Shown: positions 71 through 48,015 of the stretch, piece by piece
Position numbering within the stretch: position 1 is the first letter of the stretch
Layout of the letters: the number at the start of each line of letters is the position of its first letter
IMG/VR virus record: IMGVR_UViG_2806310411_000001
Span: 1-50,502 of that record
Strand: one strand, 5' to 3'
Origin: a virus
Length of the DNA stretch: 50,502 bases
Notes under the pieces: generated by a model
Database searches by the model: none
Seen by the model: the letters and a program-made list of their open reading frames with translations, nothing else
What the model was told of the DNA's origin: nothing
Made by a program: the position numbers and the translations under genes

Positions 71-165
71 CACAAAATTAGCGATTGTCGGGTCTGTCTG
101 TCGGGTGGGAATCGCGGACAGAAGGCGAACTTGGCGCGAAACCTGGTGCGAAACTCCGAGACTTG

Positions 166-378
166 ATGCCTGGGCCAGAACCGGGCATGCTGCGGCCCAT
201 GGTTGCACTGGATGACGTCCGCAAAGCCCGGGTCGAGAACGCGCACATCGCGCGGCTGGAAGAGCTGGTCGAGAACGTGCGCGCCACGCTGGCCGGGCCG
301 GCGAGCGATCGCGACAAGATCGGCTGGATAACCGAGCTCCTGAACGTCCAGGGCTACCGGATCGACGCTCCGGGCTAA
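166..378 (+). CDS. hypothetical protein (start uncertain; track ORF begins at 85)
   Basis: ORF 85..378. The first ATG is at 166 (MPGPEPGMLRPMVALDD...). It is convergent with the SprT-like gene and their stop codons overlap. Confidence 0.4.
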   Translation: MPGPEPGMLRPMVALDDVRKARVENAHIARLEELVENVRATLAGPASDRDKIGWITELLNVQGYRIDAPG

Positions 379-722
379 AACAGCAACGGATCGAAGCCGT
401 GGTGCTTGCACGCACGCCGGCCGAGCTTGTGGAACTCCGCGTTGTGGCCAGTTGCACGCGGGTTCTTCCGGCGCTGATAGAGGTGGATCATCTCGTGAGC
501 CATCAGCTCCATCAGGCTCAGCGTGCGGCCGATGTAGGCGCTCGACGCCGCGATCACATGCTGGCCGTTCACGATGTTGTACCAGCCGCAATCGTCCTTC
601 GACCTGATGACGACGAACTTGACGTCGCCGCCCGGTGGCAGCTTCCACCGGTTGAACGGCGGCGTGGTGCGGAGATAGTCGTAGGACGTCTCCAGGACCT
701 TGGGGGTGAGACGGAAGGTCAT
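375..722 (-). CDS. SprT-like zinc metalloprotease domain protein
   Basis: HEMIH (HExxH) motif inside a SprT-like context (LMELMAHEMIHLYQ). Its start overlaps the polymerase stop in an ATGA arrangement. Confidence 0.65.
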   Translation of the reverse strand: MTFRLTPKVLETSYDYLRTTPPFNRWKLPPGGDVKFVVIRSKDDCGWYNIVNGQHVIAASSAYIGRTLSLMELMAHEMIHLYQRRKNPRATGHNAEFHKLGRRACKHHGFDPLLF

Positions 723-2788
723 TTCCGATACCTAGAACTTTCGAAGCCTGACGCCGCGATGGGAATGCCGCCGCCCCACGACGGAAGCTCGCACATGATC
801 TCCTCGTACTCAGATGCGGAGCCGAAATCTGCGTCGGCCTCAGACACGTTTTCATCGTGGCAAGTGAGAATGATCGGATAGTTATGCCGTTCGAGGCGCA
901 CCATCGCTTCGGCCAAAAAATCACGCGCGACGGCCTGGGTAGGTCCTTGCGCCAGATCCCCGCCATAGGTCGAGATGCGCGCCCACCGCGACGTGTTACT
1001 CTCGTCGGCCCATACAATCTTGCGGCTGTTGGAGACGTTCGGAACAGTCTTGAAGGTGACGGCGTCCTTCGTCTCACCCCAAGGCGTCTTGACCGGGTAG
1101 ATTTTCGGGTACGGAAAGCACAGCGCTCGCCCCGAAGGCAGTCGGCACCACAAAAAGGAGCCAACGACCTTGTAAGCCAATGGCCCCGCCGTGAAGACAT
1201 GGCCCGGTTTAGAGATCGCCTTAATCGCTGCGTTCTCGCAGTCGTACCAGAACTGCACAATTTCGGGGTTCTCTTGGCGCCAGGCCTTCTTAATCTCGTC
1301 GGCCTCGTCGTCGTCAATTTTGACGTTGTAGGTGTGGGCCATGGTCTGGAAAGCGCCTACACCGCCGCCGAAACCGCAGGCGAGCTCCGGGACCTTCCCG
1401 CGAACCTGTCGCTCGTCCTTTGTCACGTCCTCCGGTCGCTTGCGCAGGATCATCCCGGCCATGACCTTGTAGAGATCAGGCCCTTCGCCTCGGTCATATG
1501 CCCGAAAGGCATCGAGTTTCTTGCGCGCGCCCGCGAGCCAGGCGAGTACGCGTCCTTCGATGTTGCTAAAATCGGCGGCGACGATCTTCTTGCCGGCCGG
1601 CGCCTTTATGAGGCCGCGCAGAATGTACGAGAGGCACGACATCGGGGCATCGTACATGGCGTCGAGCGTATCGATCGCCTTTTGCGTCGGGTATTTGAGT
1701 ATGACTTCGATCGCGCCGTCGCAATCGAAGTCCTCCGGAGGGCGTTTCAGATTCTGAGGCTGGAACCGACGCCCTGCCCACCGCCCGGTGTTCGCCGCGT
1801 TGAACTGCAAGAGGCCCCGAGCTCGGCCGTCCGCGGACATGCCATTAAGAATAGCGTCGATCTTGGCCACAGACGCCTTGCCGGCCTCTTGCCGGAGCTC
1901 GAGCGCGCGCCGCACTGGCGGATCTAAGTGGTCTCGGGCGAGCATCTCTTCGACGAAGGTTTTGTCGAGAGTGTCGACGATCGCCATTGTCTTTTTGTCG
2001 AGCCGCGCTCCGAGAGTGACGCCGCGGCCTTTCAGCCAGACTTTCAACTGGTTCAGGTTGGTGCAGGCGCTCACCTCGTAGTCGGTGAGTTTGGCCATTT
2101 CCCTGTCGAGCTGGCGCTCTTGGTGTTCGACGATTTTCAACGAGCGTTGTGCGAGCTCGACGTCTACGAAAACGCCGCGAGAATTCACCCGTTGATCCAG
2201 GTGCCACAACGACTGCTCGAAAGGCCGGAGCGCCACGAGGCGCGCGCGGATCCCGCGCTCGACCTCGACGTCCGTGCGACAATAGGACCGTAACACCTCG
2301 ATGTCCTTCGGATCCTCTCGCCACAACAACGCCTCCGTCGGCTCGCCCTTCTTTGGCCGCCGCGGCTTCGACATGGCTAGCATGAGCCTTTTGCCGGCCT
2401 GGTCTTTGCCGATGTCCAGGCCGATGGCGCCAGCGGCGTTGTCCAAAGCGCCGGGCAGGGACATGGCGTAAGCCGCGACCATGCTGCAACGCCATTGCTC
2501 CATCTTGGGCATAGGCCAGCCGTACCGGGGGCCCATAATGTAGGTCCAGATCGCGATCTCGAAATTCGCGTTCCACGCTGCAATGATGCTGCCCGCGCGA
2601 ACATGCGCAGCTAGCCGCTCCGGCACCGGGTCTCCGCGGCCCCATACCTGAATGGGCTCGGCGTCGATGGCCCACGCAGCGCACCAGACATCCGTGTCCG
2701 CGTTCTCTGCGTAGGGGTAGACGCCAGTTTTCTTCAAATCGACGGGCGATCTGGTCTCGAAGTCGATCGTGAGGACTGAATTAGACAT
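719..2788 (-). CDS. Family A DNA polymerase with N-terminal 3-5 exonuclease
   Basis: Exo I motif TIDFETRS. Motif A ADFSNIEGRVLAWL. Motif B KVPELACGFGGGVGA. Motif C CHDE. The likely start is MSNSVLT at 2788; the track ORF extends to 2842. Confidence 0.9.
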   Translation of the reverse strand: MSNSVLTIDFETRSPVDLKKTGVYPYAENADTDVWCAAWAIDAEPIQVWGRGDPVPERLAAHVRAGSIIAAWNANFEIAIWTYIMGPRYGWPMPKMEQWRCSMVAAYAMSLPGALDNAAGAIGLDIGKDQAGKRLMLAMSKPRRPKKGEPTEALLWREDPKDIEVLRSYCRTDVEVERGIRARLVALRPFEQSLWHLDQRVNSRGVFVDVELAQRSLKIVEHQERQLDREMAKLTDYEVSACTNLNQLKVWLKGRGVTLGARLDKKTMAIVDTLDKTFVEEMLARDHLDPPVRRALELRQEAGKASVAKIDAILNGMSADGRARGLLQFNAANTGRWAGRRFQPQNLKRPPEDFDCDGAIEVILKYPTQKAIDTLDAMYDAPMSCLSYILRGLIKAPAGKKIVAADFSNIEGRVLAWLAGARKKLDAFRAYDRGEGPDLYKVMAGMILRKRPEDVTKDERQVRGKVPELACGFGGGVGAFQTMAHTYNVKIDDDEADEIKKAWRQENPEIVQFWYDCENAAIKAISKPGHVFTAGPLAYKVVGSFLWCRLPSGRALCFPYPKIYPVKTPWGETKDAVTFKTVPNVSNSRKIVWADESNTSRWARISTYGGDLAQGPTQAVARDFLAEAMVRLERHNYPIILTCHDENVSEADADFGSASEYEEIMCELPSWGGGIPIAASGFESSRYRK

Positions 2789-3320
2789 GGCGCCACGTCC
2801 TTCCGGCGCGCACGCCATTGATGCAGCTCCGCGAAACACCAAACATGTCGCCGAGGTCGTCCGAGCGCATGTGCGGGCGTTGCCGGATCGCGTGGACGTC
2901 AGCCTCGGTCAGAACCGCCATGGGGCATTGCTCACCGGCCAGGTGCGTTCCGTGCCGCTTCTTGTCGGCAATGTTGGCCTGGACTGTTTTGTAGAGCAGG
3001 TTGCTCGCCGCGCAATTCGCGGGACAGCCATCGTCGTGCGCCACCTGCATCCCGGACGGCCGCGGCCCGATGAAAGCAGCCGCAACCAGATTGTGGACCG
3101 TGTCGGCCTTGCGCTTGCCTCCTTTGTAAAGGTGCACGAGCAGATAGCCGTTGACATGCGGATGTTGGCTTAGAATCCGCTCGGGCTGAAACCGCGGCAG
3201 CGGATCGCCGAGTTTCGTCCTCGCGTATACCGTGCGGCCGACGCTCTTGACGCGCCCGAGATTCGACACCTCATAGAGGCCTTCGAAGCCGACAACGGGT
3301 TTCCAGATTTCCTCGGTCAC
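2781..3320 (-). CDS. NUMOD4/HNH homing endonuclease
   Basis: N-terminus WKPVVGFEGLYEVSNLGRVKS (NUMOD4-like), followed by an HNH_3-like core (NGYLLVHL...VHNLVAAAF). GTG start overlaps the upstream stop. Confidence 0.8.
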   Translation of the reverse strand: MTEEIWKPVVGFEGLYEVSNLGRVKSVGRTVYARTKLGDPLPRFQPERILSQHPHVNGYLLVHLYKGGKRKADTVHNLVAAAFIGPRPSGMQVAHDDGCPANCAASNLLYKTVQANIADKKRHGTHLAGEQCPMAVLTEADVHAIRQRPHMRSDDLGDMFGVSRSCINGVRAGRTWRHV

Positions 3321-3469
3321 GCGAACATGTCCTCCAGCGACGGCGCCGAAGTCGGTTCAGCCGACTTCGAACGATCTTCATGCGTCGCGCCGAGCGCGCA
3401 GCGCTTGCCGTCCATCTCAGCTTTTCCGCACGCGCAAACGCCGTTCCACTCGTCAGAAGGGCATGGCAT
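3317..3469 (-). CDS. small Cys-containing hypothetical protein (50 aa)
   Basis: MPCPSDEWNGVCACGKAEMDGKRC... Overlaps its neighbours at both ends, with a GTGA junction to the HNH gene. Confidence 0.4.
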   Translation of the reverse strand: MPCPSDEWNGVCACGKAEMDGKRCALGATHEDRSKSAEPTSAPSLEDMFA

Positions 3470-3641
3470 CTTGCGGCCGCCTCCGGTACCACTCGCGATC
3501 GGTCTTCCCTTCGCGCGCGACGCGCTCGGCCTGCATCGCGAGGATCTGCCGCTGCGCGGCGTGGCGCTCGGTGTAGACACCGACGATGAACGCGGCCGCG
3601 ATCAGGCAGCCGACGATGAATGCGTCGAGGTGGTTTTTCAT
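3453..3641 (-). CDS. small membrane protein (62 aa)
   Basis: MKNHLDAFIVGCLIAAAFIVGVY... has one TM helix. ATGA overlap with the HD gene stop at 3638..3641. Only the 3-prime end of track ORF 3453..4211 is used. Confidence 0.55.
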   Translation of the reverse strand: MKNHLDAFIVGCLIAAAFIVGVYTERHAAQRQILAMQAERVAREGKTDREWYRRRPQDAMPF

Positions 3642-4159
3642 GCGGTGTACTTCCAGAAGGCGTGGAGGAATTCGATCTCGGCCTCGGCCGGCGACCAGCA
3701 CGGCAGCGTGATGCCGAGCGGCGCCTCCGGCAGATTCCAATTGGCTGGCGGCGTGGCCATGATCTGGTCGCGCTCGTCCGCGAGGATCGCGTTGTCGAGC
3801 TGCTTGAGGCGATCCGGCATCGGCCACTGGAAGCCGAAGCGTTTCGAGATCATCAGCATGAGCCGGTTCTCGATCGCGCTGTAGTTCTCCAGGAACGGCT
3901 TCACCGGCCGGATGATGTCGGCCAGGTAGGCCTCGCTGGCGTCGTGGAGCAGCGCGGCGAGCTTGAGCTCGGGCGGCGCGGCCTCGGCGATGTGCACGCT
4001 GTGCTCGGCGACGCTGTAGAAGCGCAGGCAATGGCCGTTGTAGCGGCACATCAGCGAGAGCGCGTGCGCGATGTCGCGGATCTCGACGTCCTCCGCGCGA
4101 GGGTCCGTCGGCCAAAATTGCTTGCCGGTGTAGGTCTGCATCCAGTCGCCGCGTCGCAT
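3638..4159 (-). CDS. HD-domain phosphohydrolase (YfbR-like 5-prime deoxynucleotidase family)
   Basis: Motifs SVAEHSVH and LLHDASEAYLADI. Confidence 0.75.
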   Translation of the reverse strand: MRRGDWMQTYTGKQFWPTDPRAEDVEIRDIAHALSLMCRYNGHCLRFYSVAEHSVHIAEAAPPELKLAALLHDASEAYLADIIRPVKPFLENYSAIENRLMLMISKRFGFQWPMPDRLKQLDNAILADERDQIMATPPANWNLPEAPLGITLPCWSPAEAEIEFLHAFWKYTA

Positions 4160-4179
4160 GTGTGCCTCTTGTGAATGTT

Positions 4180-4226
4180 GAAAATCGCCAAACCAGACAC
4201 GGCGGGCACACGTCTCCCGCCGTGTC
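4180..4226 (-). terminator. 11-bp perfect stem hairpin followed by a U-containing tail, between the GapR-like and HD genes
   Basis: Stem GACACGGCGGG (4196..4206) pairs with CCCGCCGTGTC (4216..4226); the loop is 9 nt. On the transcribed minus strand it is followed by TGGTTTGGCGATTTTC. Confidence 0.5.
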
Positions 4227-4235
4227 TGTCCCCCG

Positions 4236-4520
4236 TCACTCCAAGTAGGAGCTCATCCCGAGCGCCCGGCAGTAGGTCTCCACCACCATCGTGTGGGTGA
4301 GGACTTCCTCGGCGCCCTTCTTGCGCATCTTCAAGGCATCGTTCATGGCCTTGACGTCGAACCCGGCGGATTTCGCTTCCGCCTTGATGTCCTTGATGTC
4401 GTCGGAGAGGCCCTTCTTCTCCGCTTCGAGGTTCTCGATGCGGTCGATGTAGGACTTCAGCCTGGTCGCGGCCTCCTTCGAGATCGCGTTGTTGTGGCCG
4501 ATAGCTGCGCCTTCCGTCAC
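4236..4520 (-). CDS. GapR-like DUF2312 (UPF0335) DNA-binding protein
   Basis: LKSYIDRIENLEAEKKGLSDDIKDIKAEAKSAGFDVKAM matches the GapR/DUF2312 pattern known from Caulobacter. Confidence 0.75.
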   Translation of the reverse strand: MTEGAAIGHNNAISKEAATRLKSYIDRIENLEAEKKGLSDDIKDIKAEAKSAGFDVKAMNDALKMRKKGAEEVLTHTMVVETYCRALGMSSYLE

Positions 4521-4696
4521 GCCGGATCTCCCTCAGGATCGTGTCGGCGCAGGAACATCCTCACGCCGTCGAAGAACTCCCGCTGAGAGCATTGGCGGTC
4601 CCAAAACTCTCGCAGGTATTCGATGGAATCGGCCACCTTGGCCGGGGCGGGCGCCGACGGCGGGCCGCCGGTCTTGGCGAATGCGACCAGGCTCAT
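4517..4696 (-). CDS. hypothetical protein
   Basis: ORF 4517..4720. The probable start is MSLVAF at 4696, just after the SSB stop at 4704. Confidence 0.45.
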   Translation of the reverse strand: MSLVAFAKTGGPPSAPAPAKVADSIEYLREFWDRQCSQREFFDGVRMFLRRHDPEGDPA

Positions 4697-4703
4697 CCGG
4701 TCC

Positions 4704-5336: not shown

Positions 5337-5357
5337 AGTCTCTCCTTGATCTCGATC

Positions 5358-8057: not shown

Positions 8058-8093
8058 TGAGAGTTCCTTTGTTCGCTAAACCAGACAACAGGG

Positions 8094-9679: not shown

Positions 9680-9729
9680 GCGAACTCCAACGATGTGCGA
9701 ATCAATACTCTCTAAACCCACAATCTCCG

Positions 9730-10194: not shown

Positions 10195-10241
10195 TGTGTA
10201 CCCGCCCTTCCAATGTGAGACCTGTAAACTGCGATGCTTTG

Positions 10242-10270
10242 ACGATATTCCGAAGATAAGAACGAAGCAA
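10242..10270 (-). promoter_or_regulatory. candidate sigma70-type promoter TTGCTT-N17-TATCGT for the RuvC-to-SprT operon
   Basis: Read on the minus strand in the 107-nt gap between the dNMP kinase and RuvC genes. Confidence 0.3.
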
Positions 10271-11048: not shown

Positions 11049-11068
11049 GAAATCGACATTCTCACAGA

Positions 11069-11138
11069 ACCCGACAATTGACAAGGGGATATTTTTCTGC
11101 GCTTGATGTGTCGGGTTTAGAGATCGCGGCACCAGACA
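11069..11138. promoter_or_regulatory. switch-region operator cluster
   Basis: ACCCGACA (11069..11076), near-palindrome GACAATTGAC (11073..11082), TTGACAAGGGGA (11078..11089), TGTCGGGTTTAGAGAT (11109..11124) and ACCAGACA (11131..11138). The last two form an inverted pair with a 14-nt spacer. Confidence 0.55.
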
Positions 11139-11166
11139 ATGCCGCTTCAACGCAGACGGAGCGCAC

Positions 11167-11580
11167 ATGCAGGAAATCGACCGGACCCCTGTTTTCATAG
11201 AGCGGAGGCCTTCCATCCCGTTCGCCGCGATCGGCGGCCGGATCGGCCGGACAAACCCGACAGCGGGCGAGGGGTGTCCTTGCTGCGGCGCAGCGATGAA
11301 CCGCCCGAAGGCGTTCGTCGACTTCAACAGCCACCACCTGATCCTGGGCAACAAGACAGTCGCGCTGAGCCCGTTCGAGGCACGGCTCGCCGACATCCTC
11401 GTGCGTCGCGCACCCGGCGCCGTGACGTACGACGCCATCATCATGCACGCCTGGGACGAGGAACCCGAGGACGCGCTGGCCGCGCTGAAAACCCACATAG
11501 TCCACCTGAAGCGCAAGGCGGCATTGTTGGGTATAAAGATCGTTAATGTCCACTCCGTTGGATACCGGGTGGTGATCTGA
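11167..11580 (+). CDS. OmpR/PhoB-type winged-helix DNA-binding protein without a receiver domain
   Basis: The C-terminal region LSPFEARLADILVRR...THIVHLKRKA...VHSVGYRVV matches the Trans_reg_C pattern. An alternative start lies at 11299. Confidence 0.65.
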   Translation: MQEIDRTPVFIERRPSIPFAAIGGRIGRTNPTAGEGCPCCGAAMNRPKAFVDFNSHHLILGNKTVALSPFEARLADILVRRAPGAVTYDAIIMHAWDEEPEDALAALKTHIVHLKRKAALLGIKIVNVHSVGYRVVI

Positions 11581-14580: not shown

Positions 14581-14637
14581 CCAACTTTCGATTCTCGTGT
14601 AGACTTTAGCGACCATGTGAACTCCAAGGACCAGACA

Positions 14638-18782: not shown

Positions 18783-18915
18783 GTCGGTTCCTTGTCTGGT
18801 TTTGGTTCGCAAAAGTCACACTAGAGGGCGTGAGAAAACAGGCCGGCCCAAACGGCGAGCATGGCCAGGAAGAGCGCGAGGGCGGCGAGCGCGGGAAGCT
18901 CGGAGAGGAAGGTTT

Positions 18916-19425: not shown

Positions 19426-19529
19426 GTGAGCTCCCGTTGTTTGTCTGGTATTGCGACCATACGCTCTCGCATTTCCCCTTGTCAACGGCTTTTTGTCGAT
19501 TTTGTTGATTTTAGCGAATTGACGTTTTC

Positions 19530-20710: not shown

Positions 20711-20848
20711 TGGCTTTGTCGGCTTGACAAAATCTCAAAACCAGACAATCCTAGCCCTCGCTCGAACGCAACGAGCTCCATGTGTGCACCTCAGGGGCGG
20801 GTCTTTGTCTGGTGTGGCCCGCCCCAACACCTGACCGGGGGAATAACC

Positions 20849-21285: not shown

Positions 21286-21389
21286 CTGTCTGGTATTGCG
21301 ATCTTGTGAAATCGCAATTATCGCGCTACTATCGCTTCCGGTCGACCACAGCCGCTTCGCCAACGGCGTTCCAGCGTCCCTAAAGCGTC

Positions 21390-26704: not shown

Positions 26705-28869
26705 AGAGCGGCGATATTGTGGAAGGCGGGCAGGGCGAGGGCTCCCCGCAGCCGGTGAACGTCGGAGCGGCGAACGACAAGCCGGCGGTCGACCCTGCGC
26801 GCGCGGCGCGCGTCGCGAGCATCCTCAAGGAGATCAAGGCCGACAAGGAGCATTGGGGCAAGGACTTCAAGCGCATGCGGACCTGCATGAAGCTTGCGGC
26901 CCACGGCACCACCAACAAGGAAGAGGCCGAAGCCGAGAATGGCGCCTACGTCGTGCCGATCACGAACCGGCTGATCGGCGTGGCGGTCGCGACGCTCTAC
27001 GCGAAGAACCCCAAGGCGGTCGCGCGGCGCAAGCAAAAGCTGATGTACAAGCTTTGGGACGGCGATCCGGCGACGCTGATGGCCGCGGTCCAGCAGGTGC
27101 AGATGGCCCCGCCGGCGGCGATGGATCCGACCACCGGCGTTCCGGTCGGCGGCCCCGATCCGAACGCGGTCGCCCTCCTGGCCGAAGTCGCGGCTGCCAA
27201 GACCGAGTTCATCCAGTACGACCGCATGGCCAAAACCATGGAGTTGCTGTTCGCCTACTTCCTCCAGGAGCAGGACAGCGGCTACAAGGAGATGTTCAAG
27301 GCGCTGGTGCGACGCACGAAGGTCTGCGGCGTCGGCTATGTCGAGCTCGGCTTTCAGCGTCAGCTCCGCAAGAACCCCGACATCTCGGCGCAGATTGCCG
27401 ACGTCACCAGCCAGATCGCGGCGATCGAGGCACAGATCGAGATCGCGCAGAAGGACGGCGTGGAGCCCGACACCGCCACAGCGCAGCGGCTCAAGGAGAT
27501 GCTCGAGGTGCTTCAGGCCAAGGAGGAGATCCTTGTCCGCGAAGGACCGACGCTGAGCTTCCCGCGCGCGGTCGACATCATCCCGGATCGCAAGTGCAAG
27601 CACCTGAAGACGTTCGCCGGCGGCCGTTGGCTGCATCGCGAATACCTCATGGACCGCGAGGAGATTCTTGCAACCTGGGGCGTCGATGTCGGTACGAATT
27701 TCACGGCGTATAAGTCGATCACCGACGCGCAGGGCAACGTCACGCAGATCAAGGACACGCCGAGCGACGCGGCGTCCGCACGCGTCTATTGCGGCTGGAA
27801 CAAGGTCGACCAGGTCTATTACGTCGTCTGCGACGGGTACAACGACTACATCGTCGCGCCGGCTGAGCCCGACGTGAAGATCGAACGGTTCTGGCCGGTC
27901 TTTCCGCTCGTGTTCAACGAGGTCGAGGCCGAGAACGAGGACGGGTCCGTTTCCATCTTCCCGCCGTCGGACGTCTGGAACTCGCGCCACATGCAGCGTG
28001 AGTACAACTCGTCGCGCCAGGGCAAGCGCGAGCACAAGATCGCCGGGCGGCCGCGATGGGCGTCCCCGCGCGGCGCGCTCGAGAAGGAGGACAAGGAGAA
28101 CCTTGCGGCGGCTGCACCGTTCAGCGTCACCGAGGTCAACGCGCTTGCCACCGGCGAGAAGCTCACCGACAAGCTGATGCCGGTTCCCGTGCCCGGCCTC
28201 GACCCGAACCTCTACGAGACCGAGACGGTGTTCGCCGACATCCAGCGCACCGTCGGCGTGCAGGCGGCGAACCTCGGGGGCACGTCGGGCGACACCGCGA
28301 CCGAGAGCTCGATCGCCGAGCACAGCCGCGACACGTCGAACGCGAGCGATGTCGACGACCTCGACACCATGCTGTCGGCCTTGGCGCGCGCCATGGGCCA
28401 ACTCATGCTCACCGAGCTGTCCAAGGAGACCGTGCTGGAGATCGCCGGCCCCGGGGCCGTCTGGCCAGACCTGCCGCCGACCCGCGAGCAGATCGTCAAG
28501 GACCTCATCCTCGAAGTCGAGGCCGGCTCCAGCGGTCGCCCGAACAACGCCGCCGTGCTCGCCAATTACGAGCGCGCGATGCCGTGGCTGTCGCTTCTGC
28601 CGGGCGTCAATCCCGCCCCGCTCGCCAAGAAGGGGCTCCAGGCGCTCGACATCGACACCGACGACATGTTCGTCGAGGGCGCTCCGTCGATCACCGCGCT
28701 CAACCAGATGGCCCGGCCGCAGCCCGGCGGCGCCGGCCCGAACGCCCCGGATCAACAAGGGGACAAGGGCGGTGACAACGCCAAGCAGCCCGAGCAGCCC
28801 AATGAGCCGGGAGCGCAGCCGAGCTATCAAGGTCCCGGCGCCGTCCAAGGCGCACCTCTGGCCCATTGA
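26698..28869 (+). CDS. portal protein (putative)
   Basis: A 723-aa ORF immediately after terL, with overlapping ATGGTAG. Called on position and size only. Confidence 0.6.
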   Translation: MVESGDIVEGGQGEGSPQPVNVGAANDKPAVDPARAARVASILKEIKADKEHWGKDFKRMRTCMKLAAHGTTNKEEAEAENGAYVVPITNRLIGVAVATLYAKNPKAVARRKQKLMYKLWDGDPATLMAAVQQVQMAPPAAMDPTTGVPVGGPDPNAVALLAEVAAAKTEFIQYDRMAKTMELLFAYFLQEQDSGYKEMFKALVRRTKVCGVGYVELGFQRQLRKNPDISAQIADVTSQIAAIEAQIEIAQKDGVEPDTATAQRLKEMLEVLQAKEEILVREGPTLSFPRAVDIIPDRKCKHLKTFAGGRWLHREYLMDREEILATWGVDVGTNFTAYKSITDAQGNVTQIKDTPSDAASARVYCGWNKVDQVYYVVCDGYNDYIVAPAEPDVKIERFWPVFPLVFNEVEAENEDGSVSIFPPSDVWNSRHMQREYNSSRQGKREHKIAGRPRWASPRGALEKEDKENLAAAAPFSVTEVNALATGEKLTDKLMPVPVPGLDPNLYETETVFADIQRTVGVQAANLGGTSGDTATESSIAEHSRDTSNASDVDDLDTMLSALARAMGQLMLTELSKETVLEIAGPGAVWPDLPPTREQIVKDLILEVEAGSSGRPNNAAVLANYERAMPWLSLLPGVNPAPLAKKGLQALDIDTDDMFVEGAPSITALNQMARPQPGGAGPNAPDQQGDKGGDNAKQPEQPNEPGAQPSYQGPGAVQGAPLAH

Positions 28870-28895
28870 CAATTTGTCTGGTTTAGAGATATTGT
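28866..28895 (+). promoter_or_regulatory. candidate promoter TTGACA-N18-TATTGT containing TGTCTGGTTTAGAGAT
   Basis: Lies in the gap between the portal and scaffold genes. The palindrome GACAATTTGTC is at 28868..28878. Confidence 0.4.
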
Positions 28896-35220: not shown

Positions 35221-35702
35221 GGCTAACCGAGCTCGACTACGGCGTCGTCCTGGAGATCGTGAAGCAGGCGCACGATCTCGAGCAGATTTACGTCCTGAAC
35301 GGACATCGCGACCCTGGCGTCCTCGCCAAGGTCATCATGGCCGCGGCGAATTTCTCGTGGGTGGCATGGGGCGAGGGGAAACCTATCGCGGTGTTCGGCG
35401 CGGTCGAGCAGCACAAGGGCGTCTGGCAAATCTACATGCTGACGACGCCCGACTTCCGCAAGATCGCGATTCCGCTCACGCGGTTCCTGAAGCGGACGAT
35501 GGTGCCGATCCTGTTCGACGAACTCGGCTGTCGCCGGCTCGAGGGCTTCTTCCACGAGGACAACGTCTTCATCCACCGGTGGGTGGAGGGGTTCGGCGCG
35601 AAGCGCGAATACGTCAAGGAAGGGTACGCCCCCGACGGCAAGGCATATTTTGGTTATGCGATTTGCAAGGGGACTCTTGACTCTCAAAACCAGACTCGAT
35701 AG
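35217..35702 (+). CDS. T7 gp13-position protein with a GNAT-like pattern
   Basis: Probable TTG start overlapping the upstream TGA. The C-terminal pattern FHEDNVFIHRWVEGFGAKRE is acetyltransferase-like. Confidence 0.4.
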   Translation: MRLTELDYGVVLEIVKQAHDLEQIYVLNGHRDPGVLAKVIMAAANFSWVAWGEGKPIAVFGAVEQHKGVWQIYMLTTPDFRKIAIPLTRFLKRTMVPILFDELGCRRLEGFFHEDNVFIHRWVEGFGAKREYVKEGYAPDGKAYFGYAICKGTLDSQNQTR

Positions 35703-43266: not shown

Positions 43267-43554
43267 TTACGACTGAGGGGCCGTTTCCGGCAACGTGATC
43301 GGGGTGAACGGTCCCATGTGCTTGAAGTAACCATCGGCCTCGCTCTGCCGATAGATGAAGCCGTCCTTGCTCTGCACAAATCCCTCGGCCAATCGCTGAG
43401 GAAAATCGCCGTGCCACTTACCGATCTCTGGATAGCAGGCTGAGCACAGCGGCTTGAAGTCCTCGGCGTAGTTGGCGTCCCTTTGCTGGCGCCAATAGCC
43501 GCCACACGCGGTGTTTTCAACAGAGCCGCATTTCGAGCACATATAGAGCGGCAT
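43267..43554 (-). CDS. zinc-ribbon-like Cys-rich protein (95 aa)
   Basis: Two CxxC pairs, CSKCG...CGG and CSAC. GGGAA ribosome-binding site. Confidence 0.5.
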   Translation of the reverse strand: MPLYMCSKCGSVENTACGGYWRQQRDANYAEDFKPLCSACYPEIGKWHGDFPQRLAEGFVQSKDGFIYRQSEADGYFKHMGPFTPITLPETAPQS

Positions 43555-43572
43555 CGGCCATTCCCTTTCTAT

Positions 43573-43776
43573 TTATGTGCGCGCGGCTGCCACGTCGCCT
43601 ACCGTGATCTTGCCGGCGAGCATCAGCCGCAGAATGATTGCCACGGGCTCGGGTACGGAGCGCTCTCCGGCCACCCAACGGCGGGCGGTGCGCGGATCAG
43701 CTCCCACAAGTCTAGCCGCCCCGACCTGTGAAAGGCCGAGGCGGTCAATGGCGGCTTGAAATTGCTTAGGCGTCAT
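43573..43776 (-). CDS. small HTH DNA-binding protein (67 aa), Aca/antitoxin-like
   Basis: LGLSQVGAARLVGADPRTARRWVAGERSVPEP is a classic short HTH regulator pattern. It overlaps the upstream ORF by 11 nt. Confidence 0.6.
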   Translation of the reverse strand: MTPKQFQAAIDRLGLSQVGAARLVGADPRTARRWVAGERSVPEPVAIILRLMLAGKITVGDVAAART

Positions 43777-43951
43777 TGGTCGATTTCAGGATGTCGCGGA
43801 GACGATCGAAAGAGTCGGACGGAAGGTCAATCCGCTGGCCCTTCTCAGGGTTCCGAACAGTGGCGAATGCCCGCTCGCGCTGATCGTGGGCTTCGAAGAT
43901 GTTGATGAACCAGCCTTGTCCGAGATCATGGGTCTGCATTGCTCTCTCCAT
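43766..43951 (-). CDS. small hypothetical protein (57-61 aa), first gene behind the operator pair
   Basis: Track ORF. The alternative ATG at 43939 has a better GGAGAG site upstream. Confidence 0.5.
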   Translation of the reverse strand: MERAMQTHDLGQGWFINIFEAHDQRERAFATVRNPEKGQRIDLPSDSFDRLRDILKSTNDA

Positions 43952-43986
43952 CGCCGGGCAGGATTGCCCTTGCTGATGAACCTAAG

Positions 43987-44026
43987 ATAGGGCCAAACGT
44001 CCTATAGGGCAAGCGGTCCTATTATC
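43987..44026 (-). promoter_or_regulatory. two tandem palindromic operators ATAGG-N9-CCTAT abutting a GATAAT -10 box
   Basis: Operators at 43987..44005 and 44004..44022. The -10 box lies at 44021..44026, read on the minus strand. Confidence 0.55.
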
Positions 44027-44201
44027 ACGTATTGTTACATCTGGCCGTCATATCCTGCTCACGAGCGGCAGCCTGAACGAGGCTCGGCGGTATGCGCAGG
44101 TCACGACAGAGACCGGCGTGGTGCTTGGGGTCGGCCCCGGCGATCAGCTTGGCCAGCGCCTTGATGAACTCTCGGCGCCCGTCTTCTGTGTTCAGGTCCA
44201 T
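44025..44201 (-). CDS. hypothetical protein (58 aa, below the track cutoff)
   Basis: ATG at 44201 with GGAGG 7 nt upstream. MDLNTEDGRREFIKALAKLIAG... Confidence 0.4.
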   Translation of the reverse strand: MDLNTEDGRREFIKALAKLIAGADPKHHAGLCRDLRIPPSLVQAAAREQDMTARCNNT

Positions 44202-44204
44202 CGT

Positions 44205-44540
44205 CTATCCTCCGGTCTCACGAACACCATTCGGGACCGGCAGGGCACTCCCCTCCGCGTCGCAGTGGTCCTCGTCTGGCTCCAGCTTTTGCGGATTCTC
44301 CCGCCAGTATTCGTAGGTCCGCTGATCAGCCTTGCGGGGCTTGAGATAGTGCGGCATCTCCCAGACCGCGCCGCAGTGCTGGCACTTCACCGTGTAGGCG
44401 AAGTATCCGTCGAAGTGGTTGTGGGCGCCGCATTCGCAATGGAAGTCCATGCACACGTCGGTGCCTTTCCACTGGATAAAGGCGTGGGTTTCCTCTGGGC
44501 TGCCCTCGTCGATAAAATCTGGCATGTTCTCATCTTTCAT
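44205..44540 (-). CDS. Cys/His-rich hypothetical protein (111 aa)
   Basis: ATGA overlap with the upstream peptide gene. DVCMDFHCECGAHNHF...CQHCG. Confidence 0.5.
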   Translation of the reverse strand: MKDENMPDFIDEGSPEETHAFIQWKGTDVCMDFHCECGAHNHFDGYFAYTVKCQHCGAVWEMPHYLKPRKADQRTYEYWRENPQKLEPDEDHCDAEGSALPVPNGVRETGG

Positions 44541-44629
44541 GAGCGGCGGGCTGTATTGCCGGCGACCCAGCCAAGGGCAAACATCACAAAGCACGCGAAC
44601 AGCAAAAGCACGATTTGATCTATAGACAT
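44537..44629 (-). CDS. 30-aa transmembrane peptide
   Basis: MSIDQIVLLLFACFVMFALGWVAGNTARRS. AGGAA ribosome-binding site. Confidence 0.35.
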   Translation of the reverse strand: MSIDQIVLLLFACFVMFALGWVAGNTARRS

Positions 44630-44651
44630 CTTCGGTTCCTTGTCATGTGCT

Positions 44652-44873
44652 TCAGTCTGTTGGATCTTGATATGGCTCCAACGGAGCCATGCTGCCTGGC
44701 TCACGGCCTCCCCACATGTCGAAATATGCGTTCCCGACAAAGCCAGCGACGTGGGCTAGGGCGTAGAACAGCTTGCGTTGTTCTTGGTCGGTCTGCCTCT
44801 CCGCGTGCTCCTTGATCATGCGGCCGGCGCCAAGCCAAGCCTTGGCGTGCATGCCCAAATCATCTCGATTCAT
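44652..44873 (-). CDS. hypothetical protein (73 aa)
   Basis: Track ORF with GGGAG upstream. Confidence 0.5.
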   Translation of the reverse strand: MNRDDLGMHAKAWLGAGRMIKEHAERQTDQEQRKLFYALAHVAGFVGNAYFDMWGGREPGSMAPLEPYQDPTD

Positions 44874-45108
44874 TTTCGTCTCCCGTTTTCATTGCCCGGA
44901 TTGTAGCCGCGATCTTTTTGCGGGCCTCCTCGCGCCCGGTGTGCCGCGCATGAGTGCCATACGCCGGTAGCGACGCTAGCTCTGCGGCTCTCGCGCACCT
45001 CTCGATGATCTCGTTTCGGTGCCTTTCCTGTTCCTCGCAATAGCGCTCGTATGCAGCGCCGCCCTCAAAGGACGGGTCCCCGGGCTGTTCATATCCAGTG
45101 GTAGTCAT
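44860..45108 (-). CDS. hypothetical protein (82 aa)
   Basis: Track ORF with AGGAG upstream. Confidence 0.5.
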   Translation of the reverse strand: MTTTGYEQPGDPSFEGGAAYERYCEEQERHRNEIIERCARAAELASLPAYGTHARHTGREEARKKIAATIRAMKTGDENESR

Positions 45109-45260
45109 TTCCGTCTCCTGATGGCATTGCGGCTGGTTATCATCTTGTAGCCGTCCTCAAATTCGACGCAGCAACTGTTCATTCTTCCGCGCGCCGTGAC
45201 CCGGCAAAAATGGCCTTTGCGCCCTTGTCGATTCCAGAAGTAGACATAGGGGAAATCCAT
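45105..45260 (-). CDS. small basic Cys-containing protein (51 aa, below the track cutoff)
   Basis: MDFPYVYFWNRQGRKGHFCRVTARGRMNSCCVEFEDGY... ATGA overlap with the next gene. AGGAAG ribosome-binding site. Confidence 0.4.
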   Translation of the reverse strand: MDFPYVYFWNRQGRKGHFCRVTARGRMNSCCVEFEDGYKMITSRNAIRRRK

Positions 45261-45295
45261 GGGCGTAAGCACTTCCTATAGAACCGGCTGTCCGG

Positions 45296-45490
45296 TTACG
45301 GCCGCCAGGTTCCTTCGACGAGCTCGAACTGTCGCGCGATGTATTCCTTCGGCGCGTCGTTCTCGAGCATATCCAGCGTGAAGAACAGCCGCATGCGCGC
45401 GGTCGGGTCCTTCTCGGCGCGCGCCTGAGAATCGAGCGCGCGAGCGCCCGCGGAACGTGGTTTCGCCCTTCGTGAACTCAAGGTTCCCAC
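45296..45490 (-). CDS. hypothetical protein (start uncertain)
   Basis: Track ORF with a GTG start next to the divergent control region. An internal ATG would give a 32-aa product. Confidence 0.3.
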   Translation of the reverse strand: MGTLSSRRAKPRSAGARALDSQARAEKDPTARMRLFFTLDMLENDAPKEYIARQFELVEGTWRP

Positions 45491-45501
45491 CTTGTCGAAA
45501 A

Positions 45502-45550
45502 TGTCTGGTTATGAGATGATAGTGACCAGACAACGTATTTGCAAGGGGAC
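45502..45550. promoter_or_regulatory. inverted repeat TGTCTGGT-N15-ACCAGACA followed by ATTTGCAAGGGGAC, upstream of the lysis cassette
   Basis: Arms at 45502..45509 and 45525..45532. The second motif is at 45537..45550. It sits between divergent gene sets. Confidence 0.55.
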
Positions 45551-45554: not shown

Positions 45555-45785
45555 GTGAAGCTGATCGAAAACGCGTGGGAGGACCTCCACCGCCTATGGT
45601 CGATCCGCGCCTCGATCATGCTCAGCGTGTTCCTCGGCGTGTCCGGCCTCCTGGCCGCCTTCGTCGACACCGTGAACCCATGGGTGCTGGTCGGCGTCTC
45701 GATGGTCCTCAACGGCCTCGTCATTCCGATCCTGCGCCTCATCAAGCAGCGTGAGCCGGCGCCAGCCGCGGAGCCCGAAGCATGA
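45555..45785 (+). CDS. putative holin
   Basis: GTG start. Hydrophobic segments follow LHRLWSIRASIMLSVFLGVSGLLAAF. ATGA junction with the endolysin gene. Confidence 0.55.
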   Translation: MKLIENAWEDLHRLWSIRASIMLSVFLGVSGLLAAFVDTVNPWVLVGVSMVLNGLVIPILRLIKQREPAPAAEPEA

Positions 45786-46360
45786 GCGTCAAAAAGACAG
45801 CCGGCTATACCGGCTCGGCGGCCGTGATCGCCGCCACGGTGGCTTTCCTTCCGGCCTGGGAGGGCATGGACGCCGTCGCCAAAAAGGACATGATCGGCAC
45901 CGGCCACCCCGTGACCTACTGCTATGGCCAGACGGCCGAGTTCGGCAAGGTCAAGGAAGGCACGCGGTTCACCAAGGCCGAGTGCGACCAGAAGCTGGCC
46001 GAGAGCCTGCCGAAATATCTCGAGCAGATCCAGCCGTGCATCAAGGTCCCACTGCCGGTGAAGACGGAAGCGTCGCTCGTCGATGCCGCCTACAACGCCG
46101 GCCCGCGCGCGGTTTGCCGCTCCCCGATGCTGGCCAAGATGAACGCGGGCGATCTCGCTGGCGGCTGCCGTGCCTTCAGGGGCTGGTACACGCGCTCCGA
46201 CGGGCAGGAGCGGCGAGGGCTCATCGCGCGCCGTAGCGGCATCGGCGACGGCCGCAAGAGCGAGATGGCGCTTTGCCTCGAGGGCGTTGCGGAGGGGCTG
46301 CCGAAGCCGCCCGCGCCGGCAAAGCGGTCGTGGTTCGCATGGCTCTGGAAGCAGAAATGA
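45782..46360 (+). CDS. GH24-type lysozyme with an N-terminal SAR-like anchor
   Basis: Weakly hydrophobic N-terminus GSAAVIAATVAFLPAW, followed by an EG...D...T catalytic pattern. Confidence 0.75.
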   Translation: MSVKKTAGYTGSAAVIAATVAFLPAWEGMDAVAKKDMIGTGHPVTYCYGQTAEFGKVKEGTRFTKAECDQKLAESLPKYLEQIQPCIKVPLPVKTEASLVDAAYNAGPRAVCRSPMLAKMNAGDLAGGCRAFRGWYTRSDGQERRGLIARRSGIGDGRKSEMALCLEGVAEGLPKPPAPAKRSWFAWLWKQK

Positions 46361-46749
46361 TCGAAGCGATCCTCAAACAAGCACTGGCCGGCGTGTGGGG
46401 CGAAGTCTGGCGCTTTGGCCTCGGCTACGGCATCTGCATTTGCCTGGCGATCGCCGCCTATGTCTCGCCGGTCTTCAAGAAGCAACTGGCGTATGCGGCG
46501 CTCGCCGTCTTCATCTTCATGGTCGCCTTCACAAGCGGAGTTATCACCGGTGAAAAACGTGTTCGAGCTCAGTGGGCAGCCGCGGACGAGCTCACCCTCA
46601 AGGCCAACGAAGCGGCGCGCGCTCGCGCTGAGCGCAGTGTTGGCCGCAAGCCTGCTGGCCGGGTGCGCGACGACCGGAATGGCCCCGACTGCCGGGACTG
46701 CGAAGACGCAGTGCGCAGCGTGGCGCCGCATCACCTATTCCAAAGATGA
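46357..46749 (+). CDS. membrane coiled-coil protein, i-spanin-like
   Basis: ATGA overlap with the endolysin stop. Hydrophobic N-terminal segments, then EKRVRAQWAAADELTLKANEAARARAE. Confidence 0.5.
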   Translation: MIEAILKQALAGVWGEVWRFGLGYGICICLAIAAYVSPVFKKQLAYAALAVFIFMVAFTSGVITGEKRVRAQWAAADELTLKANEAARARAERSVGRKPAGRVRDDRNGPDCRDCEDAVRSVAPHHLFQR

Positions 46750-46819
46750 CACGTTCGAGACCGTCTGGCAGTTGCGGATCCACAACCAGACGGGCCGGAA
46801 CTTGCGATGCTGGAAGTAG
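46550..46819 (+). CDS. o-spanin-like lipoprotein overlapping the i-spanin gene in another frame
   Basis: Lipobox LLAGC after a basic N-terminus. Candidate GTG starts lie at 46550 and 46559. Confidence 0.55.
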   Translation: MKNVFELSGQPRTSSPSRPTKRRALALSAVLAASLLAGCATTGMAPTAGTAKTQCAAWRRITYSKDDTFETVWQLRIHNQTGRNLRCWK

Positions 46820-47145
46820 GGTTCGCGGAGCGGCTGGCAGCGAGCCTGCCGCGCGCGACCGACATCATTCGATCCCAACGGATCATCACTGCGGCGCTGC
46901 TTCGCGCCAGGAAGGAAGACGAAATGGCACTCGCCGATAAGGCCAGCTTGCTCGCCGAACGCATCAAGAGCATTCCCGACACGTTCGGCAAGGCCATGGA
47001 CGTGCAGCTCGCACGCCTCGACACGATCGAGCAGCGCGGCGCCGCGGCCGCCAAGCGTATGACCACGGTGGTCGACGACGTCGACGCGGCGGTGACCTCG
47101 ACCGAGAACGTCATCAACCAGATCACCAACGGGGCGCCCGACTGA
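46807..47145 (+). CDS. hypothetical coiled-coil protein (112 aa)
   Basis: Track ORF. Confidence 0.45.
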   Translation: MLEVGFAERLAASLPRATDIIRSQRIITAALLRARKEDEMALADKASLLAERIKSIPDTFGKAMDVQLARLDTIEQRGAAAAKRMTTVVDDVDAAVTSTENVINQITNGAPD

Positions 47146-47252
47146 TGCACTGGCGCCAGAAACGCGAGAGGATTAGCGGGACCGACTATTTCGTCGGCTT
47201 CGTCCTCCTGCTTCTGGCGCTTGCGCTCGTGTTGCACAAGGTCTTTCGCTGA
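47145..47252 (+). CDS. 35-aa transmembrane peptide
   Basis: TGATG overlaps at both ends. FVGFVLLLLALALVL. Confidence 0.3.
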   Translation: MHWRQKRERISGTDYFVGFVLLLLALALVLHKVFR

Positions 47253-47905
47253 TGGCCGGCGTCGATGACATCATCGCGCGCGAGAGCGCCGGCGACCCGA
47301 ACGCCACGAACAGCCGCTCGAGCGCGGGTGGCCTTGGCCAATTCATCGATTCGACGTGGCTGGACATGCTCCAGCGACATCGGCCGGACCTGCTTCAGGG
47401 GCGCTCACGCGCGGACCTGCTCCAGCTCAAATTCGACCCGCAATTGTCGAAAGACATGACCGCGGCATACGCTGCCGACAACAACGCGGTGCTCTCAAAA
47501 GCAGGCATACCCATCACGCCTGGCGCCACCTACCTGGCCCATTTCGCCGGCCCCCAGGGCGCCGTGAACGTGATGAACGCCGACCCTGCAACGCCGGTTT
47601 CGGCCATCCTGGATCGCTCCGCGATCACGTCGAATCCGTTCCTCCGGAACATGTCGGCTGCCGACCTGAGGGCCTGGGCTGACGGGAAAAAGTCGCAAAA
47701 AGGCACAAAACCGACACAAGGGCCGGTTCCCGATACCGTTCCAACACCGGAACTGGGGAATATTTTCGCACAACTTGCGCCTGTGTCACTTCCCGCATTG
47801 ACAGTTCCGTCGGCGCAACCCCAACTGGCTACGCCTTTAGTCGGTAGCGGTCCAACATTCAGCTATATCCCTGAATTGTTGAAGCGACAGAAGGCTTTGT
47901 CTTAA
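47252..47905 (+). CDS. lytic transglycosylase (SLT domain) protein
   Basis: ARESAGDPNATNSRSSAGGLGQFIDSTW matches the SLT catalytic Glu-Ser and GLxQ motifs. Confidence 0.7.
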   Translation: MAGVDDIIARESAGDPNATNSRSSAGGLGQFIDSTWLDMLQRHRPDLLQGRSRADLLQLKFDPQLSKDMTAAYAADNNAVLSKAGIPITPGATYLAHFAGPQGAVNVMNADPATPVSAILDRSAITSNPFLRNMSAADLRAWADGKKSQKGTKPTQGPVPDTVPTPELGNIFAQLAPVSLPALTVPSAQPQLATPLVGSGPTFSYIPELLKRQKALS

Positions 47906-47969
47906 CTTCGGGGTCGGCGTAGCCGCGCGTCGATGGGAATATTTTAATTCTCCGTAAATGTGCGGAGAA

Positions 47970-48015
47970 CTCCCCTTGCAAATCCACAATTGTCTGGTAT
48001 TGTCGGGTTTGTCGG
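47970..48015 (+). promoter_or_regulatory. repressor-gene control region: candidate promoter TTGCAA-N16-TATTGT overlapped by three tandem TGTC(T/G)GG repeats
   Basis: CTCCCCTTGCAAAT (47970..47983). CACAATTGTC near-palindrome (47985..47994). Repeats at 47991, 48001 and 48010. Confidence 0.5.

Follow-up and report, generated by a model that had tools for sequence, protein, structure and literature searches.

The 50,502-nucleotide viral stretch IMGVR_UViG_2806310411_000001, which we refer to at its full length as the window, is one complete integrated prophage of approximately 50.4 kb from Bradyrhizobium stylosanthis. Its control regions repeatedly feature the 8-bp word TGTC(T/G)GGT, or TGTCKGGT, for which we propose a CI-type repressor of the XRE class (48032-48505) as the most likely binder. 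The closest described systems are phages that use one repressor at several operators. Phage P1 contains 22 operators for the C1 repressor that are dispersed over the genome and share an asymmetric 17-bp consensus, with some overlapping the promoters of unlinked operons (PMC8546580). The prophage resembles P1 in having one immunity repressor, which here is proposed, and many operators throughout the genome, some of which lie over promoters. It differs in host group, probably in the XRE-type helix-turn-helix (HTH) repressor proposed, and in an 8-bp core that occurs in tandem and inverted-pair arrangements. Furthermore, P1 is a plasmid prophage, whereas the Bradyrhizobium prophage integrates at a tRNA gene.

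Cluster A mycobacteriophages, such as L5, which encodes the gp71 repressor, and TipsytheTRex, contain more than 20 asymmetric sites, which act as operators within promoters and as stoperators within short intergenic gaps (PMC9283540). The orientation of the L5 sites is strikingly tied to transcription and is needed for function, and repressors of the L5 type are monomeric, combining an HTH with a 'stoperator domain' (PMC9283540). The Bradyrhizobium motif shares with these sites its dispersal and its location in promoters and in short gaps near gene starts, where silencing of initiation and of read-through would both be possible. However, the orientation rule fails in the window, with approximately 12 copies oriented with local transcription and seven against it (11131, 11255, 14630, 18793, 19442, 20740 and the variant at 35689). 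The proposed repressor also appears to differ in pairing an XRE HTH with a short, poorly modelled C-terminal part.

The CI repressor of TP901-1 contains a linker and domains for dimerisation and multimerisation, and its oligomers bind the separated operators OR, OL and OD (PMC7250872). Its DNA-binding domain is the closest solved relative of that of the XRE protein, both being HTHs with an inter-helix insertion, and its operator downstream of the early promoter is comparable to the intragenic copy at 11255. In contrast to the approximately 20 dispersed copies of the window, TP901-1 has three palindromic operators within one switch region of less than 1 kb. The cI gene of TP901-1 is divergent from mor, whereas the XRE gene lies between the lysis genes and int in a shared orientation. 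Its distance from the early divergent region is approximately 13 kb in circular DNA, measured across att, and approximately 37 kb in the integrated window. The proteins consist of 180 amino acids for CI and 157 for XRE. Likeness to the Pho boxes of PhoB/OmpR proteins extends to the TGTC core, to one locus with 10-bp tandem spacing and to a Trans_reg_C gene beside copies, but the Trans_reg_C protein is without a receiver, most copies are single or inverted, and their positions are repressor-type rather than -35-replacing. From these comparisons, the motif family appears best filed as a dispersed-operator immunity regulon and not with L5-type stoperators.

An 8-bp word in the control regions of the prophage

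Across both strands of the whole window, TGTCKGGT has 20 exact matches, compared with an expectation of 2.35 +/- 1.77 and a maximum of 9 in dinucleotide-preserving shuffles. These matches comprise 14 copies of TGTCTGGT and six copies of TGTCGGGT. An earlier sequence-only reading had described a family concentrated in intergenic control regions, and this description holds: using a curated gene map, 17 of the 20 copies were non-coding in a window with 10.6% non-coding DNA (binomial P = 2e-14), and the count becomes 18 if translation of the gene at 20780 really begins at 20850, an ATG with a Shine-Dalgarno sequence. The positions listed in that reading were correct, but copies at 11255(-) and 14630(-) had been missed, its site at 35689(-) is a one-mismatch variant, and its variant at 9708-9722(-) carries a one-base deletion. 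Its tally of 13 for TGTCTGGT was one short, and its single intragenic copy at 2683, within polA, is joined by a second exact copy at 11255, within the Trans_reg_C gene.

The word is not palindromic, and its position 5 admits T or G, while the remaining one-mismatch variants occur at background (36 in total compared with 22 expected). At least four degenerate copies add to the exact ones, and the family spans positions 86 to 50444. A longer form, TGTCKGGT-TWDGMGAW, is seen in approximately half of the copies. When up to three mismatches are allowed, the 16-mer TGTCTGGTTTAGAGAT has 9 matches where 0.10 are expected. No 9-mer of the window is more over-represented than TTGTCTGGT, which occurs 10 times compared with an expectation of 0.21. 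Direct reading of the sequence upheld the arrangements reported earlier, which are inverted pairs separated by N14 at 11109/11131 and by N15 at 45502/45525, with a spacing of 22-23 bp, and a tandem triple at 47991/48001/48010 with 10/9-bp phasing, the third copy of which reads TGTCGGAT. Most of the other copies are solitary. A scan of IMG/VR for the exact 16-mer returned 41 loci, which we regard as chance matches because each has a single match and the 8-mer is not enriched. We also discarded two candidate families: TTGTCGAT(T), most copies of which are coding (GTC-GAT / ATC-GAC codons) and the few intergenic copies of which resemble weak versions of TGTCKGGT, and the 3' half alone (WTDGMGAW), which at 41 matches compared with 27 expected is too weak to stand as an independent family.

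Relatives of the prophage were reached through the Trans_reg_C, XRE, neighbouring dNMP (deoxynucleoside monophosphate) kinase and portal proteins. Direct search yielded few Trans_reg_C homologues, and those of L176 and L177 were located instead by way of the dNMP kinase encoded next to them. The contigs fetched were L042 (49 kb), L043, L048, L126, L049+L176, which are two parts of one B. neotropicale contig, L050+L177, and L179. A profile search of contigs with the XRE alignment found homologues of at most 45% identity only and no Bradyrhizobium relatives. The comparison with shuffled background and related prophages that the sequence-only reading had proposed showed enrichment in the window and in all close relatives fetched, each of which contains TGTCKGGT in 5-10 copies compared with 0.5-1.0 expected (8-17-fold). 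The exact motif is found at syntenic places in at least seven related prophage contigs, in which the flanking DNA and proteins are only 50-85% identical. The shared positions are three copies in the early divergent region, one inside the Trans_reg_C gene, one upstream of each of the genes that follow SNF2 and GapR, one within the loop of a GC hairpin, one ahead of a tail-fibre-like gene, one at the portal/scaffold junction, the pair at the lysis promoters, the tandem set at the XRE promoter and the copies beside att. Position 5 swaps between T and G in orthologous copies; for example, the counterpart of the copy at 28875 lies in L179 within a portal/scaffold promoter that reads TTGACA-att-TGTCGGGT-ttagc-GATATA. 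The copy within the Trans_reg_C gene encodes N-P-T in most phages and, in another frame, T-R-Q in L177, which indicates selection on DNA rather than on protein. Judged by this conservation, the motif is under selection.

Six promoter-like sequences carry copies in the spacer or at +1 (Table 1), and the distance from the motif to the -35 box ranges from 2 to 9 nt. Across the window copies, we found neither a fixed position nor a single orientation relative to the -35 box, the -10 box or the start. Several conserved copies that lack a promoter sit 14-24 nt upstream of start codons with good Shine-Dalgarno sequences, and two promoter-less copies come after terminator-like hairpins. Transcription that started at a motif-set distance would begin inside or beyond the Shine-Dalgarno sequence, which argues that the inter-cistronic copies are not promoters of the downstream genes. 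Furthermore, the -35 boxes are near-consensus (TTGACA, TTGCAA), which suggests that an activator should be unnecessary; the rightward early promoter, P_R, has poor -35 and -10 hexamers. The placement as read from the sequence appears to fit operators that occlude RNA polymerase and not promoter recognition, and the promoter-less copies could be roadblocks, insulators or looping partners.

Several promoter readings were rejected. For 'TTGTCT' as a -35 box, or the 16-mer as a -10 or extended -10 box, the hexamers 16-18 nt downstream are unsuitable, and a start at the conserved inter-cistronic copies would destroy the Shine-Dalgarno sequence. For extracytoplasmic function (ECF) sigma factors or sigma-54, spacing and upstream conservation were unsuitable on inspection. 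We also observed an extended -35-like form, CCCCTTG(C/T)(A/C)A, at six intergenic boxes, located at 11082(-), 17372(-), 19475(+), 35666(-), 45542(-) and 47972(+); five of the six have a motif copy within 30 nt.

Candidate binding proteins

The identification of the 48032-48505 product as an XRE-type HTH protein is borne out by Pfam, in which HTH_31 is the only match, by PHROG repressor families and by profiles of the Protein Data Bank (PDB). Its gene adjoins the integrase gene in approximately 45 related loci, and in the isolated Rhizobium phage RHph_N65 the homologue is placed as a classical CI gene would be, divergently from the early operon. When a profile of the XRE family was compared with the PDB, the best match was the N-terminal domain of TP901-1 CI (E 1.5e-5), and the matches 3zhm, 3zhi, 6tri and 5a7l, at E 1.5e-5 to 2.1e-5, are remote (27-28% identity). 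Foldseek matched the HTH of an AlphaFold2 model to C-proteins and to the TP901-1 CI domain on an operator half-site with target-normalised TM-scores of 0.72-0.82. The C-terminal beta-hairpin and helix are modelled at low confidence, with a predicted local distance difference test score (pLDDT) of 47-74, and have no fold match.

Phages that retain the motif show almost no change in the XRE segment QSDLARAA...NRDNVSLYVR, which covers helix 2 and the recognition helix. In L051, which encodes an XRE homologue that is 50% identical, TGTCGG-N9-CCGACA lies over the XRE start region, and a TGTCTGAT/CCCGACA pair is found at the lysis promoter. In RHph_N65, with an XRE homologue of 41% identity, TTGTCCG-N15-CGGACAA surrounds a TTGACA box in the switch region. 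Among 256 cores counted in the 210 nt that precede the XRE gene at 41 non-redundant distant loci (less than 60% identity), TGTC[CGT]G was the most enriched, with 59 occurrences compared with 28.6 expected.

In XRE homologues, helix 2 and the recognition helix are also separated by an insertion of varying length (0, 7 or approximately 12 residues), the flanks of which (WNQSDLAR ... RDxxSxY) are nearly invariant. Eight IMG/VR contigs with distant XRE homologues (L141, L146, L147, L154, L155, L157, L158, L161) show 4- to 6-fold over-representation of TGTCTG, which ranks 3-39 of 4096 hexamers and occurs approximately once per 350 bp on both strands, genes included; L141 also contains a tandem triple and an inverted pair resembling those of the window. 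Although real, this enrichment extends into coding DNA and bears no relation to the sequence of the XRE recognition helix, and it was therefore not used as evidence.

Taken together, we propose with moderate confidence that the prophage's own immunity repressor uses TGTC(T/G)GGT as its operator word and that the CI-type XRE protein is the most likely binder of this word. Our ranking by sequence evidence would place the Trans_reg_C protein next and the winged-helix protein encoded at 17389-17865 after it. In the mechanism that we infer, which takes XRE as the binding protein, the hexamers as real promoters and repression as the outcome, each XRE HTH domain would read one asymmetric 8-mer, and oligomerisation through the C-terminal part would make copies usable singly, in 10-bp tandem, or inverted two helical turns apart. 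In the lysogen, XRE would occupy the core of essentially every strong sigma-70-like promoter and block initiation, which would shut the early divergent promoters, the leftward promoter at 19456-19485 beside terS, and the portal/scaffold and lysis promoters, such that all sigma-70-type promoters of the prophage would be silenced directly and without a cascade. XRE would be made from its own promoter and would limit itself through the tandem triple. The inter-cistronic and att-side copies might act as roadblocks or insulators against read-through or as auxiliary looping sites. In particular, the att-side copies (86/99, and those of L049 and L050) face transcription arriving from the tRNA or integrase side and could insulate the prophage from it.

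Several points weigh against XRE as the reader of the motif. A simple HTH dimer would not usually combine direct with inverted copies or span 22-23 bp between half-site centres, such that XRE would need flexible tethering and oligomerisation to use single, tandem and inverted sites. The mixed orientation leaves an L5-type directional roadblock unsupported. The upstream-core test is confounded in part by intergenic composition, since TTGT, TGTA and TTTT are also enriched, and by the resemblance of TTGTCG to a -35 box. All close relatives with the exact motif also carry the Trans_reg_C and winged-helix genes, and therefore co-occurrence cannot separate the binders within the prophage family. All of the promoters named here are hexamer matches to consensus with unmapped starts. 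Lastly, XRE alone does not account for the conserved 3' half TWDGMGAW or for the 8-bp palindrome that this half forms at 21295-21318. The arms of the palindrome covary, with ATTGCGAT/ATCGCAAT in the window becoming TTAGCGAA/TTCGCTAA in L126 (approximately 15953-15990), which suggests a second protein or an extended contact, and the bracketed promoter-like TTGTGA-17-TACTAT has an L042 counterpart at approximately 18907-18945. The palindrome may serve a second dimeric regulator as its operator or, alternatively, form a hairpin. We also considered a composite-site switch, in which XRE would read the 5' box TGTCKGGT and a fast-evolving second protein, e.g., Trans_reg_C, would read the 3' box TWDGMGAW as an anti- or co-repressor and thereby set immunity specificity in the prophage family. 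This arrangement, which would be a genome-wide version of the composite operator of TP901-1 CI:MOR, seems unlikely.

We weighed three further readings that would place the motif under a different phage factor. The sequence-only reading had identified the 11167-11580 product as an OmpR/PhoB-type protein, which the Trans_reg_C match confirms (Pfam E 7.5e-9, a score above the family cut-off). An AlphaFold2 model of residues 46-137 (pLDDT approximately 88) shows a beta-sheet, three helices and a wing, and the protein has weak PDB matches to RpaA, KdpE and PhoB-family proteins. Residues 1-45 are unmodelled and gave no Pfam match, leaving the protein without a receiver domain. This protein might bind the motif, acting in a Cro-like manner at the early and XRE promoters and perhaps activating weak promoters at the 16-mer copies; the poor hexamers of P_R could require an activator. 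Its gene lies directly beside three copies, holds a fourth and accompanies the motif in every close relative that retains it; TGTC is common to the Pho-box core TGTCA, and the tandem triple at 47991-48017 resembles head-to-tail OmpR/PhoB binding. However, the argument for OmpR-type binding that the sequence-only reading drew from 10-bp tandem phasing loses force, as clear phasing of this kind is found at only this place in the window. Inverted pairs are atypical of the OmpR family, copies at core-promoter positions are typical of repression, and the conserved copies 14-24 nt before start codons cannot be activator-dependent promoters there. Furthermore, the recognition helix (residues 103-119 of the model) lies in a region, P100-K117, that has zero invariant residues in seven orthologues, with variable positions reading THIVH, THMVH, VRLCY, VVLHR, VKVYA and VGMCK, while all seven phages keep TGTCKGGT exactly. 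RHph_N65, for its part, has TGTC-type operators and no detected homologue of either this protein or the winged-helix protein. We consider binding by Trans_reg_C improbable. Its N-terminus contains an invariant RRPSIPF..IG..GCPCCGA segment (orthologues in L042, L043, L048, L126, L176 and L177), and the combination of an invariant N-terminus with a hypervariable recognition helix is an unusual pattern for a DNA-binding protein. Helix variability does not count against the winged-helix protein, because five orthologues share its putative recognition segment, G-L-K-R-G-T-V. Among close relatives, L042, L048, L126, L176 and L177 were checked and all carry the gene, which sits at the early/late boundary as late regulators do, consistent with a middle or late regulator that binds the motif. 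Nonetheless, its HTH matches are weak and below Pfam thresholds, copies in strong early, late and lysogenic core promoters alike are ill-suited to a late activator, and in addition to RHph_N65 no homologue was detected in L051 or L141, which are partial contigs, despite TGTC-type sites in all three. These observations make this candidate very unlikely.

The 16-mer itself could be a phage-specific promoter or element read by RNA polymerase with an alternative sigma or a phage factor. Most long-form copies are co-oriented with downstream genes, sequence reading shows a GAnnnT hexamer at a constant 5 nt after TGTCKGGT in seven of the 10 long copies, and the two copies after terminator-like hairpins lie where a new transcription unit could begin. 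In contrast, the variable distance from the -35-like boxes argues against a promoter element, as does the occurrence of the motif reversed at +1, in 10-bp tandem, in a hairpin loop, within a gene and beside att. The copies before the genes that follow SNF2 and GapR would set a start inside or beyond the Shine-Dalgarno sequence, and no gene for an RNA polymerase or sigma factor was recognised when ten proteins were compared with Pfam and PHROGs and the other translations were read by eye. Thus, of the candidates in the sequence-only reading, the XRE repressor is retained as the favoured one, the OmpR-like binder is disfavoured by its hypervariable helix, and the promoter element, disfavoured by variable offset and reversed copies, has in our estimate very little prospect. 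A site for a host DNA-binding protein that the phage family exploits would account for a motif that is unchanged across prophages of different Bradyrhizobium species and metagenomes, and the 3' half TTTAGA... is loosely like the half-site of the Irr iron control element (ICE). Yet none of the alphaproteobacterial regulator consensus sequences compared, which are those of LexA, CtrA, FixK, the NifA upstream activator sequence, the Pho box and ICE, appears to fit, and phages of other hosts have related but shifted words (TGTCGGR, TGTCCG) that go together with the XRE homologue. We consider a host protein the least probable of these readings.

If XRE is the repressor, this prophage group would represent a third unrelated lineage, after P1 and cluster A, in which one repressor silences the genome via approximately 20 dispersed sites, and the repressor would be an ordinary XRE/CI-type protein acting on an 8-bp asymmetric word in prophages of nitrogen-fixing Bradyrhizobium. 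The motif would then mark promoters and operon boundaries of an uncharacterised prophage group and predict which prophages share immunity, and the compact repressor/operator pair could serve in rhizobial genetic tools. The proposal also raises a tractable question about how a small HTH protein could work at sites that are single, in tandem or inverted with wide spacing.

Prophage layout and individual copies

We regard the window as a complete integrated prophage because 57-bp att repeats bound it. ARAGORN called no tRNA in the window, because only the 3' part of the tRNA gene is present. Megablast of half of the window against isolated phages gave only two short matches, both to Rhizobium phages. 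By sequence, the prophage is one without a close relative among isolated phages, the nearest being RHph_N65 and Microcystis phage Mae-Yong1326-1 (terminase identity 36-38%). An Rfam scan of the entire window returned zero matches, and therefore a known RNA element is unsupported. The operons, regulatory genes, motif copies and promoter-like sequences are collected in Table 1.

Table 1. Coordinates of the att repeats, genes, motif copies and promoter-like sequences in the window.
Feature	Position	Strand	Remarks
attL copy of 57-bp direct repeat	1..57	+	tRNA-gene 3' end, ends ...GGTTCGAGTCCCTCCGAGCGCACCA
attR copy of 57-bp direct repeat	50446..50502	+	Identical to 1-57
Leftward replication operon	375-11048	-	DNA polymerase A, HD hydrolase, Enc34-type ssDNA-binding protein, DUF2800, SNF2 helicase, dNMP kinase
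Divergent rightward early operon	11167-17865	+	Trans_reg_C protein, C5-methyltransferase, primase-helicase, winged-helix protein
Stand-alone OmpR/PhoB-type winged-helix (Trans_reg_C) protein, 137 aa	11167..11580	+	First gene of rightward early operon
Winged-helix protein, 158 aa	17389..17865	+	End of rightward early operon; weak matches are to IclR/MarR HTH
Short leftward block	17883-19424	-
Rightward late operon	19530-43251	+	terS through tail genes
Lysis genes	45556-47905
XRE / CI-type repressor gene, 157 aa	48032..48505	+	HTH_31 and PHROG repressor matches
Tyrosine integrase gene	48873..49979	+	Directly downstream of XRE gene; from translation
Two direct TGTCGGGT copies	86-93, 99-106	+	Just inside attL; face transcription arriving from tRNA or int side; kept in L043
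Degenerate copy TGTCTTGT	50437..50444	-	Abuts attR core; orthologous to exact TGTCTGGT in L049 and L050, where exact copies flank att
Exact copy in DNA polymerase gene	2683..2690	-	polA genes of L042, L043, L176 without copy; probably a chance match by this comparison
16-mer copy TGTCTGGTTTGGCGAT	4184..4199	-	Between GC hairpin and ribosome-binding site of HD-hydrolase gene; syntenic counterpart upstream of DUF7220 gene (L042, L043, L176)
16-mer copy TGTCTGGTTTAGCGAA	8072..8087	-	After terminator-like hairpin/T-run ending SNF2 gene; next ATG 14 nt downstream; equal ATG spacing in L042, L043, L126, L176, L177
Variant copy TGTGGGTTTAGAGAG	9708..9722	-	One base deleted
Divergent early control region	11049..11166	.	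Copies 11069-11076(-), 11109-11116(+), 11131-11138(-); from ATG of left gene up to ACCAGACA nearly invariant in five relatives
Copy in 5' part of Trans_reg_C gene	11255..11262	-	Also in L043, L048, L126, L176, L177
Copy before gene at 14638	14630..14637	-	Between Shine-Dalgarno and ATG
Copy at leftward DUF3560 gene	18793..18800	+	Abuts ribosome-binding site, antisense to gene; kept in L042, L048
16-mer copy near terS	19442..19457	+	At +1 of leftward promoter-like sequence, upstream of terS promoter region; kept in L042, L177; terS promoter has degenerate copies only in window, full-consensus tandem copies in L180
16-mer copy TGTCTGGTTTTGAGAT	20732..20747	-	After HNH gene; kept in L042
Hairpin GGGGCGGG-N16-CCCGCCCC	20794..20825	+	GC-rich; copy 20806-20813 in 16-nt loop; no T-run after hairpin on either strand; identical in L042 (~18443-18474), twice in L126 (near 15358 and 15474)
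Copy then palindrome ATTGCGAT-N8-ATCGCAAT	21287..21332	+	Copy 21287-21294; palindrome brackets -35 of TTGTGA-17-TACTAT
Portal/scaffold junction	28866..28893	+	16-mer copy 28875-28890 in spacer of TTGACA-16-GATATT
Variant copy AGTCTGGTTTTGAGAG	35681..35696	-	Core AGTCTGGT (1 mismatch); spacer of promoter-like TTGACT-17-TAGTGT
Overlapping divergent promoter-like pair	45492..45548	.	Upstream of holin gene; inverted copies 45502-45509(+)/45525-45532(-); pair also in L049, L050, modified form in L051
XRE-gene promoter-like region	47976..48017	+	Tandem copies 47991, 48001, 48010; kept in L049, L050
P_xre, promoter-like	47976-47981, 47998-48003	+	TTGCAA, 16 nt, TATTGT; three tandem copies ~-19 to +8
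Lysis, leftward, promoter-like		-	CCCCTTGCAA-17-TATCAT; one copy in spacer, reversed partner ~+1
Lysis, rightward, promoter-like		+	TTGTCG-17-GATGAT; mirror image of leftward lysis arrangement
Leftward promoter-like at 19485	19485-19456	-	TTGACA-18-TATGGT; reversed copy at +1; also found by scan
P_L, promoter-like	11084-11079, 11061-11056	-	TTGTCA, 17 nt, GAATGT; spacer copy

Within the leftward replication operon, a terminator-like hairpin with a T-run lies over the last codons of the SNF2 helicase gene (8099-8129, -), with a motif copy approximately 10 nt further on; expression of the downstream replication genes would therefore need read-through or antitermination. The first gene of this operon (10857-11048) lacks a Shine-Dalgarno sequence, and its ATG is 7 nt past the -10-like GAATGT (11046-11061, -). 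Its mRNA may be leaderless, because the ATG is so near the -10-like hexamer and a Shine-Dalgarno sequence is absent. Between the tail and lysis genes is a block of small leftward genes of approximately 2.2 kb (43267-45490, -), which includes a gene for a 67-amino-acid HTH protein (43573-43776) and lies downstream of a strong leftward promoter-like sequence at 45516-45548. In the B. neotropicale relative (L049, 7689-7874), the leftward promoter is kept and the small-gene block is missing.

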